64,000 bases of DNA from an uncultured Porticoccaceae bacterium. GTDB lineage: Bacteria; Pseudomonadota; Gammaproteobacteria; Pseudomonadales; Porticoccaceae. The stretch covers positions 52,535-116,534 of the forward strand of contig CBFIHQ010000001.1 of assembly GCA_965662525.1 (NCBI GenBank), written 5' to 3'. Shown one piece after another: positions 55,060-58,227 of the stretch (position 1 is its first letter; every line of letters starts with the position of its first letter). The notes under the pieces are model-generated. The model ran no database searches. It had not been told where the DNA came from and worked only from the letters and a program-made list of their open reading frames with translations. The position numbers and the translations under genes were made by a program.

Positions 55060-55566
55060 TTAATTGGTAATTCTTACAATACCTTGCATTGAACAATTTG
55101 CCAATAGATCAATAACTTTTCCGTGACTTGGGATAGTTAAATCGGCATTTAAATCTGCCAGAGGGGCTAATACAAAGGCTCTTTCATGAGCATATGGATG
55201 TGGAAGGGTAAGTCTTTGGGTATTTTCGATTAACTGGTCGTAAATTATTAGGTCCAAATCTAAGGTTCTTGCACCCCAGCGCTGCTTGCGAATGCGTCCC
55301 TGTTGATTTTCAATCGATTGAAGGGCATCGAGTAATTCGTATGCCCCTAAATCGGCCTCAATTTTGGCTGCAGCATTAATATAATCTGGCTGATTTCCAG
55401 GGCCAATGGCTGGAGTTTGATATAGGCTGGAAACCTTTATGATATTAATTTTCTTGTGCGCACCTATTTTTTCTATCGCGCATTCTATTTGCATTTCTGG
55501 GGTTTTATGCAGGCCATCAGATTCGCCGCCTAAGTTGCTGCCAAGTCCAATAAAAGCCTCAGGCAT
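55060..55566 (-). CDS. folK: 2-amino-4-hydroxy-6-hydroxymethyldihydropteridine diphosphokinase
   Basis: IGLGSNL, SSLYQT, RWGARTLDLD, LPHP, RAFVL; start reassigned to ATG 55566 (8-nt overlap with pcnB). Confidence 0.96.
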   Translation of the reverse strand: MPEAFIGLGSNLGGESDGLHKTPEMQIECAIEKIGAHKKINIIKVSSLYQTPAIGPGNQPDYINAAAKIEADLGAYELLDALQSIENQQGRIRKQRWGARTLDLDLIIYDQLIENTQRLTLPHPYAHERAFVLAPLADLNADLTIPSHGKVIDLLANCSMQGIVRITN

Positions 55567-56896
55567 TAGTGGGACCTTTGGTTTTTCGTCGAGGTCTGCG
55601 GTTTCGAGGTCGATGAGAGCTGAGCTGTTGAACCATCGTTTGACGCTCATCTTCATTAGCCTCTTGATATGTGGTCCACCAGTCACCAAGACCCTCCAGG
55701 CACTCACCTGTTTGTTCTCTCAACAGAATAAAGTCGTAGGCAGCCCGGAAGCGCGGGTTTTCCATAGAGCGATTAGCTCTATTACCTCCGCGTTTCACCA
55801 GGGTTAACTGCATAGACCAAATTTCACGCATAGCCATGGTGAAGCGTTTTGGAATTGCTGTAATTGGGATTTGATTGCTTATTACTTCATTGGCTGCCTT
55901 GTTTATAGCGCTAGCAGCTGGATGTCCTTGTTTTTCATATTCTGCAGCTGTTTTTTGTACCGACGGCCACAATAGTGCAGCATAAATAAAAGCCGGAGTT
56001 ACTCGCTTGTTGCTGCGAATTCTTAAATCAGTGTTAACTAAAGCCTGCTCTACCATTTTTTTGGCAGTTGGGTGTCCTTGATCGATTAGGCGATTTGTCT
56101 GGGGCACGAGATGTGCGAAGAGTCGGGATTCAAATAGCTGTTGAAATACTGCAAGGCCATAGCCACCCATAAATAATTTGAGTGTTTCATCAAACATTCT
56201 AGGTGCCGATACATGCTGTAAGCTATTTGCCATTTTAATAATGGGCTTTAACGTCTTACTCTCTATCTGGAAGCCTAGCTTTGCTGCAAAACGGGCTACT
56301 CTTAAAAGTCTAACCGGGTCTTCGCTGTATCTAGTTGCAGGATTGCCGATGATACGGATTTTGCGCTTGGCAAGATCCTCAAGGCCATCGCAGAAGTCAT
56401 GAAGTGTATTTTTTTCTGTATCGTAATACAGGGCATTAATACTCAGGTCACGCCGGCTGGCATCATCCTGCATAGAGCCAAACATATTATCTCTTGTAAG
56501 CAGTCCGCTCTCAGCTTTTTGTACCTTTCCATTTATATCTGTGTTGTTTGATCTGAAGGTAGTGACCTCGATGAGCTCTCTACCAAATTGAACATGAACA
56601 ATTTGAAATCTTCGGCCAACAATTCTTGAGCGGCGAAAAAGTCTTTTTACCTGCTGGGGTGTTGCATTGGTAGCTATATCAAAGTCTTTCGGGTTGAGGT
56701 CAAGAAGTAGATCCCGTACACAGCCTCCAACCACAAAGGCTTCAAAATTATTTTTTTGTAGCACCCGAACAACTTCGCAGGCATGCTTGGATATTTTTTT
56801 CGAGTTGAGATTGTGTTGCTGAGCATGAAGCACAGTACTAATGCCATCTTTATGAGATGACATGCGTTCAAAAAATTTTCCGAGACGTTTTATCAC
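55559..56896 (-). CDS. pcnB: Poly(A) polymerase I
   Basis: VGGCVRD, KDFD, IVGRRFQIVHV signature, EDPVRLLR, RFRAAYDF. Confidence 0.97.
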   Translation of the reverse strand: MIKRLGKFFERMSSHKDGISTVLHAQQHNLNSKKISKHACEVVRVLQKNNFEAFVVGGCVRDLLLDLNPKDFDIATNATPQQVKRLFRRSRIVGRRFQIVHVQFGRELIEVTTFRSNNTDINGKVQKAESGLLTRDNMFGSMQDDASRRDLSINALYYDTEKNTLHDFCDGLEDLAKRKIRIIGNPATRYSEDPVRLLRVARFAAKLGFQIESKTLKPIIKMANSLQHVSAPRMFDETLKLFMGGYGLAVFQQLFESRLFAHLVPQTNRLIDQGHPTAKKMVEQALVNTDLRIRSNKRVTPAFIYAALLWPSVQKTAAEYEKQGHPAASAINKAANEVISNQIPITAIPKRFTMAMREIWSMQLTLVKRGGNRANRSMENPRFRAAYDFILLREQTGECLEGLGDWWTTYQEANEDERQTMVQQLSSHRPRNRRPRRKTKGPTNA

Positions 56897-57007
56897 ATTG
56901 ATTGCCGTTGATGTGTAATGGGATAGTTTAACAGAGCAAAACCAGCACTGTTAGCATTATATATTGACTAAGGTATATGGGGGGATAATGGAAAAAATAG
57001 ACCGGCA

Positions 57008-57140
57008 ATAAAAAAGGGTTGCCTTTCGGCAGCCCCCCGTAACCGTTCTTCAGTCTATGCTGTTTGAACGCTTTGCAATCCATCCGTTTATTATTTTTGT
57101 TTATTTTTATTATTTATAGTCAAAGCATGCTTCGACAGGT
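57008..57140 (-). ncRNA. Candidate CrcZ-like (Hfq-sequestering) small RNA
   Basis: Minus strand: 5' hairpin GTCGAAG-CATG-CTTTGAC, A-rich tract with AAnAAnAA motifs, terminator with GAAA loop and T6; located between gluQ and pcnB like Pseudomonas crcZ; ends approximate. Confidence 0.55.
57010..57038 (-). terminator. Intrinsic terminator upstream of pcnB
   Basis: GGGCTGCC-GAAA-GGCAACCC-TTTTTT (one C.A mismatch on this strand). Confidence 0.75.
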
Positions 57141-57309
57141 CTATATAATCAAAATTCTTAGGGAGTCACAACCTCAGTAGTGCAAGAAATAGGCTAAAAG
57201 GGTGGGAAAATGCGTTAAATGTCGTATTTGGCAGCTTTTAATGCGATAAAACTTTATATTTTTAGGTTTTTTTCGCTATTTTTGCGATCCAAAAGCTAAA
57301 TGAGATAGT

Positions 57310-58227
57310 TTAAAAATTTTCGGGTACAGCAATACCATCAGAAACTTTTGGTATTTTATTTATATCCCAATGACTTATTCCCCAGTTGATAATATCGTTT
57401 ACGCAAGAATCACGAAGTTCCTGTGGGGGACTCTGTTGTAACCAGTCTAGTGCCAGCCAAAGTTGCTTATGCCTATTGCTTTGAGGTAGTTGTTTAGCAT
57501 GATGTTGTTTACTGAGCTTCTGCCCGAGATTGTTCTTGGCAACAGGGATGTGACCATAGGTCGGTGTCTTATATCCTAAACATTGTTGCAGTAAAATTTG
57601 TCTAGGTGTTGATTCGATAAGATCGGCGCCACGAATAATTTCTGTAATACCCTGTAGGTGGTCATCAATAACTACTGCAAGTTGGTACGAAATAAGACCG
57701 TCTCGGCGACGCAAAACAAAGTCACCTACGTCTTGAGTAAGTGATTGAAAGTAACTTCCCATAATGTCATCGCAAAAATTGATTTTGTCATTTTTCATGC
57801 CTATGGTGCTTAGGCTATCTTCAATTGAAAGGCGTACGGAGGTATTTTTATCGGTGAGATGTAGTTTGTGACATTTTGCATCATAGATGCCATTGAGCAG
57901 ATTTAAGCGATGCCTCGTACACTCACAATGGTAGGTCAATTTCTGTGTTTTTAAATCCGCAAGCACTTCAAAATAATGCGTTATCTGGTTGCTTTGATAA
58001 ATAACATTGTCGTCCCAATGAAGCCCGTGTTGTTCTAATTGCTGAAGAATGGTATCACTTGCGCCAGGGACTTCTCTCGGAGGGTCAATATCTTCTATTC
58101 TGACCAGCCACTTTCCACCCTGATGTTTAGCCTGCATAAAGCTGGCAACTGCAGCCAGAAGGGAACCAAAGTGGAGCGGGCCGCTAGGAGAGGGTGCAAA
58201 CCGGCCAATACTTAATGTTGGGGACAT
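57310..58227 (-). CDS. gluQ: Glutamyl-Q tRNA(Asp) synthetase
   Basis: GRFAPSPSGPLHFGSL, RIEDIDPPRE, KLSKQ; short, no anticodon domain; downstream of dksA. Confidence 0.95.
   Translation of the reverse strand: MSPTLSIGRFAPSPSGPLHFGSLLAAVASFMQAKHQGGKWLVRIEDIDPPREVPGASDTILQQLEQHGLHWDDNVIYQSNQITHYFEVLADLKTQKLTYHCECTRHRLNLLNGIYDAKCHKLHLTDKNTSVRLSIEDSLSTIGMKNDKINFCDDIMGSYFQSLTQDVGDFVLRRRDGLISYQLAVVIDDHLQGITEIIRGADLIESTPRQILLQQCLGYKTPTYGHIPVAKNNLGQKLSKQHHAKQLPQSNRHKQLWLALDWLQQSPPQELRDSCVNDIINWGISHWDINKIPKVSDGIAVPENF

Follow-up and report, generated by a model that had tools for sequence, protein, structure and literature searches.

A CrcZ-position RNA gene conserved beside pcnB in SAR92 bacteria with and without cbrAB

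The distal, ARN-binding face of Hfq requires an A-A step followed by a free third base, and the Hfq motifs of the Pseudomonas RNA CrcZ are of the same nature; in Pseudomonas, moreover, the Crc protein stabilizes Hfq on A-rich RNA. Class II Hfq small RNAs such as ChiX and MgrR combine an ARN tract with an intrinsic terminator and its U-tail and compete strongly for Hfq. Reviews describe CbrAB/CrcZ as exclusive to Pseudomonadaceae (PMC8871633, PMC6296734), and the published CbrB consensus reads TGTTAC-N12-14-GTAACA-N15-19-GTAACA (PMC8871633). Relatives of enhancer-binding proteins that lack the GAFTGA motif have been described both in V. cholerae, where VpsR acts at a sigma-70 promoter (PMC6158489), and in Caulobacter, where NtrC works with sigma-70 (bioRxiv 10.1101/2023.06.06.543975). 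Our literature search turned up nothing on CrcZ or Hfq in Porticoccaceae, SAR92 or Marinobacter.

Here we analyse a window of 64,000 nucleotides from an uncultured Porticoccaceae bacterium of the genus SAR92/HTCC2207, whose assembly (G000) comprises 1.31 Mb in 47 contigs and is 81% complete. A preliminary description of the window had proposed that its gluQ-pcnB gap encodes a shortened CrcZ-like Hfq sponge decoupled from CbrAB, possibly with a decayed sigma-54 promoter. We find a conserved RNA gene in the CrcZ position, together with a different history for both its length and its promoter.

An RNA gene in the gluQ-pcnB gap

The genes follow one another in the order that had been claimed, namely Rieske, sfsA, dksA, gluQ, the gap, pcnB, folK, dNK and panB (Pfam and NCBIfam assignments), and the 413-nt gluQ-pcnB gap carries the RNA element on its minus strand. 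The hairpin, A tract, CGGATGGA, terminator and upstream TAGCCTATTTCTTGCA of the preliminary description all lie on that strand where it had placed them. The genes and the parts of the RNA are as follows, in the order of transcription:

57310-58227, minus strand: gluQ (tRNA glutamyl-Q34 synthetase), the upstream neighbour (NCBIfam NF004314, 365 bits)
57010-57136, minus strand: putative small RNA transcript of ~127 nt, the CrcZ-position RNA (match to model R1)
57119-57136, minus strand: 5' hairpin (5/5 modelled pairs with compensatory changes)
57087-57117, minus strand: A-rich tract of 31 nt with two AAnAAnAA clusters, (AAN)5-C-(AAN)4 in this genome
57075-57085, minus strand: GGATGGATTGC, a single-stranded motif, nearly invariant among relatives, that contains CGGATGGA
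57044-57070, minus strand: central hairpin (model helices 2-4, 89-97% paired)
57010-57038, minus strand: intrinsic terminator with a G+C-rich stem (57016-57038; helix 5) and a T6 run (57010-57015)
55559-56896, minus strand: pcnB (poly(A) polymerase I), the downstream neighbour (TIGR01942, 505 bits)

The 5' end of the transcript is inferred from the conserved -10 box and its 3' end from the terminator T-run, which lies 113 nt ahead of the pcnB start.

Taken by itself, the element would attract little attention. Its single-sequence fold energy is unremarkable (z -0.71, a score that is uninformative for one sequence), and a consensus promoter and terminator scan called neither the promoter nor the bulged terminator. 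An Rfam scan of the gap with E up to 10 yielded only noise and no known RNA family, and a scan of the whole window at the gathering threshold returned only a ribosomal protein S15 leader outside the gap, an ordinary example at 1897-2016 on the plus strand (RF00114, 79.9 bits). The case is comparative: the element is not a chance arrangement because it is conserved across relatives. In a DNA search, the stretch at ~57117-56986 is 76-86% identical in distant congeners, as against 68-74% for the adjacent start of pcnB, and an alignment of 14 congeners (A1) contains conserved blocks for the -35 TTG, the -10 region, the A tract, the GGATGGATTGC motif and the terminator. A covariance model of the element, R1, matches the window at 57004-57145 (minus strand) with 144.6 bits, finds a single copy in 62 of the 79 genomes of the genus, and has matches in 9 of 20 Porticoccaceae genera.

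The secondary structure is conserved as well, with three helices of the RNA covarying. When 51 distinct sequences were realigned to the model, compensatory changes appeared at 16 of the 23 modelled base pairs, and modelled partners were paired in 92% of cells, as opposed to 52-58% when the partners were slid, figures that lean towards the model to which the alignment had itself been fitted. The 5' hairpin is predicted in all 14 sequences that were folded singly, despite their differing sequences; helices 2-4 of the central hairpin show compensatory changes at 6 of 8 pairs, and helix 5 of the terminator is 99.4% paired with such changes at 5 of 10 pairs. These comparisons, all made at the level of sequence, confirm that the gap holds a real conserved RNA gene. 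During the modelling, a pairing of the A tract with the U-tail that RNAalifold drew from a MAFFT alignment proved spurious, and it was replaced by a hand-set structure and the model-based realignment.

Regulator genes and the promoter region

The two-component genes are missing from the locus, as had been reported: neither cbrA nor cbrB lies between gluQ and pcnB, and nothing similar is found elsewhere in the 81%-complete assembly. The DNA-binding C-terminus of CbrB has no match there (best E 0.05), no kinase resembles the cbrA-like protein of relatives outside the generic kinase core, and the only complete enhancer-binding protein is NtrC, encoded beside NtrB. Sister genomes that are 91-97% complete likewise contain no full-length cbrB-like gene at E <= 1e-70, a cutoff at which short REC-HTH forms elsewhere would escape. 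On another contig (C12:10379-10633; L004:1438-1704, minus strand), an 88-residue open frame is probably what is left of a gene, since its match to enhancer-binding proteins is confined to the Walker A part. Over 86 residues it shares 46% identity with Porticoccus CbrB (residues 111-196), and it was weighed as a cbrB remnant, situated outside the gluQ-pcnB locus. This genome does encode rpoN and hfq, the latter adjoining hflX and specifying a protein that keeps F25, I30 and K31. The genome also contains csrA, and Crc was not found in it, exonuclease III being the sole member of that fold.

In larger-genome congeners, the order is gluQ, a cbrA-like gene, a cbrB-like gene, the same RNA and pcnB, which bears out the assignment of the window's RNA to the CrcZ position. 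The cbrA-like products (965-981 residues) contain PAS, HisKA and HATPase domains preceded by 11 hydrophobic segments in residues 1-490, a region in which Pfam calls no SSF/SLC5 domain, and the cbrB-like products (418-435 residues) have a REC/AAA+/HTH architecture. A protein search detected the cbrB-like regulator in 52 of 79 congeners, and its gene lies directly upstream of the RNA in all listed genomes that have both. These SAR92 proteins have lost the GAFTGA loop through a 19-residue deletion, as well as a second loop, and carry NN in place of the Walker B DE. As the GAFTGA loop and Walker B residues are missing, they cannot be conventional sigma-54 activators, and they are probably ATPase-dead. 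Porticoccus CbrB, by comparison, carries GAFTGA. In one Porticoccus genome (G139, L082:6297-7634), the receiver domain of CbrB lacks 6 residues around the place where the phospho-acceptor Asp is expected, and no cbrA is present between gluQ and cbrB; this CbrB may be an orphan, phosphorylation-independent activator.

Four states of the locus in which the RNA is present can be told apart:

cbrA, GAFTGA-less cbrB and the RNA: most large genomes
cbrA, a 191-residue REC-HTH protein with the AAA+ domain deleted, and the RNA: G047, G024, and G164 in genus g31
a divergent cbrB-like gene and the RNA, with no cbrA: the G014 clade
the RNA alone between gluQ and pcnB: the window, G013, G074, G011, G015, and G157 in genus g28

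In a PcnB tree, the window falls within a well-supported clade of 10 genomes, all of which lack cbrAB at the locus and all of which have the RNA, and this clade is sister to the G014 clade. On the same single-gene tree, the absence of cbrAB from the locus needs at least four independent changes; the RNA would accordingly have been kept after at least four independent cbrAB losses, a pattern suggestive of a function independent of CbrAB. The reverse state also occurs: 11 congeners encode a cbrB-like protein and have no R1 match, and in the two of these 11 loci that were read (G055, L231; G056, L229), the short cbrB-pcnB spacer contains no A-rich RNA. The existence of this lineage, in which cbrA/cbrB-like genes persist in 11 genomes without the RNA, implies that the CbrB-like protein has other targets. 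Since each has been lost where the other was kept, neither the RNA nor the two-component system is indispensable in every lineage.

Wherever the locus was examined, which covers several families of the order, the CrcZ-type RNA lies immediately 5' of pcnB, a linkage that persists even after loss of cbrAB or duplication of the RNA. The latter is seen in genus g28, where two tandem copies ~290 nt apart, each with its own sigma-70-like promoter and terminator, lie between gluQ and pcnB with no cbrAB (G157, L080:2433-2868); tandem copies are found in seven further g28 genomes (G120, G168, G182, G178, G142, G132, G105). Genus g28 does encode a Crc-like protein. Such a protein, which among solved structures is closest to Pseudomonas Crc (4JG3, 217 bits), is present in 15 of 20 Porticoccaceae genera and was found in none of 31 SAR92 genomes and none of 16 genomes of genus g31.

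Upstream of the RNA, the following sites can be delineated in the window:

57220-57237, minus strand: decayed remnant of a TGTTAC-N5-GTAACA palindrome, a presumed binding site for a CbrB-like protein (aligns with the G014 clade)
57181-57196, minus strand: sigma-54-like site TAGCCTATTTCTTGCA, with AG replacing the -24 GG (probably chance)
57166-57171, minus strand: putative -35 box TTGTGA (TTG unchanged in the 14 congeners of A1 and recognizable at every SAR92 locus)
57142-57151, minus strand: putative -10 region TGATTATATA, read as TG + TTATAT or as TATATA (conserved block)

The -35 TTG and the TGATTAGAAT / TGATTATATA block are conserved upstream of the SAR92 RNA at sigma-70 spacing, and the -10 block takes the form TTTTGATTAKATAG / TCTGATTAGAAT in all SAR92 loci; in this genome the -10 box is non-canonical (TATATA or TTATAT) and was not called by a strict consensus scan. 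The suggestion of a decayed ancestral sigma-54 promoter is not supported by the comparison. TAGCCTATTTCTTGCA has the right sigma-54 spacing and a good -12 element, but among the relatives only the nearest, G067, shares it, with G013, G018, G070, G071, G074 and others lacking it, and the conserved -35/-10 pair of sigma-70 type lies downstream of it. We therefore rejected it as a conserved sigma-54 element, and it is probably best read as chance. Neither in the window nor in the genus is any GG-N10-GC arrangement conserved upstream of the RNA.

The signature of a sigma-54 promoter activated by CbrB at TGTTAC/GTAACA sites is thus absent from the window and the genus, and it is found in Porticoccus, where TGGCAC-N5-yTGCT stands just upstream of the RNA in 10 of 10 loci examined and TGTTAC and GTAACA half-sites matching the published CbrB site lie further upstream. 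The SAR92 loci have an imperfect palindrome, TGTTTC-N5-GTAACA, ~80 nt upstream. An exact GTAACA is present upstream in 19 of 23 loci with a full-length cbrB-like gene versus none of 14 loci without cbrB, and the remnant at 57220-57237, with identical flanks, matches the intact palindrome of the G014 clade at ~9 of 18 positions as counted on the alignment. Because the congeners that keep cbrAB already combine a GAFTGA-less CbrB with the same sigma-70-type promoter, the promoter changed class before cbrAB were lost. The cbrAB-less clade has a separate conserved motif upstream of the promoter, GACATTTAACGCATTTTCCCACCC (core TTAACGCA; 57200-57223, minus strand), whose reverse complement, TGCGTTAA, lies closer to the promoter in the G014 clade; the motif may be a site for another regulator.

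Hfq and the candidate functions of the RNA

The A-rich tract with its two AAnAAnAA clusters, a central element of the preliminary description, is not only present in the window but also conserved as a strict 3-nt periodicity. The family consensus is (AAN)4-A-(AAN)5, and among 51 distinct sequences the frequency of A is 0.8-0.99 at the first two positions of each triplet and falls to 0.1-0.5 at the third, which is the pattern expected for the Hfq distal face. Long AAN tracts are rare, with only 28 of (AAN)>=5 in the whole assembly, and the combination of such a tract with a terminator U-tail gives the RNA the predicted anatomy of a strong Hfq binder. Directly downstream of the tract, GGATGGATTGC is the best-conserved non-A sequence over SAR92 and Porticoccus and is predicted to be unpaired; g28 and G011 retain the other parts of the RNA but have a degenerate version of this motif. 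The near-invariant GGAUGGAUUGC might pair with other RNAs as a seed or be bound by a protein.

The reading that we favour, with moderate confidence, is that of an independently transcribed small RNA of ~127 nt that takes the place of CrcZ in the locus, is probably orthologous to it and most likely serves as an Hfq decoy or buffer. The RNA would be made from the sigma-70-type promoter and end at the strong intrinsic terminator; its nine AAN triplets would occupy the distal face of Hfq, with the 3' U-tail probably on the proximal face, and it would compete with A-rich mRNA leaders for Hfq and thereby determine how much Hfq remains free for their repression. In the ancestral state, which Porticoccus would still represent, the RNA is transcribed from a sigma-54 promoter under a CbrB with GAFTGA, and a gene for a Crc-like protein is present. 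The SAR92 lineage would then have lost Crc, while CbrB shed the GAFTGA loop and Walker B residues and the promoter became sigma-70-type; in the window's clade, cbrAB would finally have been deleted and the CbrB site would have decayed. The presumed end state is a constitutive or otherwise controlled Hfq decoy or buffer whose level is not set by CbrAB.

More tentatively, the SAR92 RNA might have ceased to be a catabolite-repression decoy under CbrAB and Crc and have taken on a new role, whether that of a constitutive Hfq buffer or that of a regulator using GGAUGGAUUGC as a seed. The locus would then record the complete stepwise dismantling of an enhancer-binding-protein circuit whose RNA and two-component system were separately dispensable in different streamlined lineages. 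If so, the order would run from a sigma-54 activator through an ATPase-dead sigma-70 activator and a REC-HTH protein to nothing.

Several observations weigh against the favoured role as an Hfq decoy. Crc was not found in the genus, nine triplets in a single tract could titrate far less Hfq than CrcZ with its six motifs, and a pure sponge model leaves the near-invariant GGAUGGAUUGC unaccounted for. The RNA is, in addition, dispensable in some backgrounds, since some congeners keep cbrAB-like genes without it. In this genome, we found no clear set of A-rich ribosome-binding-site targets: only 6 of the 28 (AAN)>=5 tracts lie at gene starts, at least two of these six at internal starts, and the others form no coherent catabolic set. 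The longest single-frame AAN tract outside the small RNA, AAAAATAATAATAATAAT (contig C1:2131-2175, minus strand), is 27 nt upstream of a saccharopine-dehydrogenase-like gene and is a possible Hfq-bound leader.

A less probable account, though the most serious of the alternatives, makes the RNA a class II base-pairing Hfq small RNA, anchored by the AAN tract and U-tail, with GGAUGGAUUGC as the seed for specific mRNAs and no decoy role. The AAN tract and terminator reproduce the class II architecture of ChiX and MgrR, and the conservation and predicted unpaired state of the 11-nt motif speak for the account; against this, the motif has degenerated in g28 and G011 while the rest of the RNA was kept. 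A target search with GGAUGGAUUGC, made in this single genome with crude ORF calling, returned no outlier among 1299 crude 5' regions (best duplex -18 kcal/mol, followed by a smooth tail), and the exact 11-mer occurs at just two other sites, both apparently within coding sequence.

It is improbable that the element acts in cis, as a pcnB leader or attenuator or as a long gluQ 3' UTR, rather than as a trans-acting RNA. Its position directly upstream of pcnB in every family examined would fit such a role, as would the precedent of Pseudomonas, in which part of CrcZ stems from read-through out of cbrB (PMC8871633). The element is nevertheless preceded by a conserved promoter block of its own and closed by a strong terminator well ahead of the pcnB start, each copy of the g28 tandem duplication ends in its own terminator, and pcnB manages without the element in G055 and G056.

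We consider a CsrA/RsmA decoy acting through the ACGGAUGGA motifs very unlikely. The overlapping ANGGA motifs of the preliminary description are indeed present, the second (AUGGA) is conserved and unpaired, and csrA is encoded in this genome; the first, however, is not conserved, which leaves one conserved GGA cluster in the RNA, its two GGAs 4 nt apart, whereas known Csr/Rsm decoys bear many GGA loops. Equally unlikely is a decaying, functionless relic of the cbrAB loss. The decay of the CbrB site and the complete disappearance of the RNA from another SAR92 lineage would fit such a relic; in the cbrAB-less clade, however, promoter block, hairpins, AAN periodicity, motif and terminator are present in each of the 10 genomes, and compensatory changes persist in the hairpins.

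Comparison with CrcZ and other known systems

The locus places a Cbr-CrcZ module in abundant marine bacterioplankton, beyond the Pseudomonadaceae. New, in our view, are the change of the whole genus to a sigma-70-type promoter, accompanied by a probably ATPase-dead CbrB that lacks GAFTGA, the absence of Crc, and the natural series of partial circuits in streamlined genomes. The SAR92 genus amounts to a natural deletion series, comprising a full circuit, a probably ATPase-dead activator, a REC-HTH activator, the RNA only and the regulators only, which bears on which parts of Cbr-CrcZ-Hfq-Crc are needed, on the conversion of a sigma-54 into a sigma-70 promoter and on what genome streamlining removes first. 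Cultured SAR92 isolates exist, which makes the series testable.

A search with the Rfam CrcZ model (RF01675) found no match in the gap at E up to 10 or in the whole genome; the gathering score of 95 bits was not reached in the gap, the genome or three Porticoccaceae genomes, and genuine CrcZ scored 300-360 bits in the same run as those three. Since there is no detectable sequence similarity, homology to CrcZ is argued from synteny, regulator, promoter and motif type. CrcZ of Pseudomonas and Azotobacter, with CrcY and CrcX the closest known system, occupies the same slot, after cbrB and before pcnB; the R1 RNA of the congeners lies in that slot, and the window's copy, between gluQ and pcnB, corresponds to it through orthology. 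The AAnAAnAA/ARN Hfq-type motifs are of the same kind, and the Porticoccus homologs share with CrcZ the sigma-54 promoter and the TGTTAC/GTAACA half-sites.

The two RNAs differ in size, CrcZ having ~400 nt and six motifs and the window's RNA ~127 nt and one nine-triplet tract in two clusters. This difference had been taken for a local shortening, yet lengths of 100-160 nt are usual in Porticoccaceae and in no fewer than two further families of the order, and in two such families (L213, L214) cbrB, a sigma-54 promoter, a short A-rich RNA and pcnB follow one another; by this distribution, the short form is ancestral for these marine lineages rather than a local truncation. Further differences from CrcZ are the sigma-70-type promoter of the SAR92 RNA, the failure to find Crc in the genus, the absence of CbrAB from this genome, and the GGAUGGAUUGC motif, which is conserved in the SAR92/Porticoccus RNA and missing from genuine CrcZ.

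With class II Hfq small RNAs, the window's RNA shares an ARN tract, an intrinsic terminator and a U-tail; ChiX and MgrR differ in pairing with known targets, and no target was found for the window's RNA. The SAR92 CbrB-like proteins, for their part, resemble VpsR, Caulobacter NtrC and NtrX in keeping REC, an AAA+-like core and HTH without the sigma-54 contact loop, and in having a target with a sigma-70-type promoter. They depart from these regulators in the replacement of the Walker B DE by NN and in the lineages that have gone further, some deleting the AAA+ domain to leave a 191-residue REC-HTH protein and others dispensing with the gene altogether.
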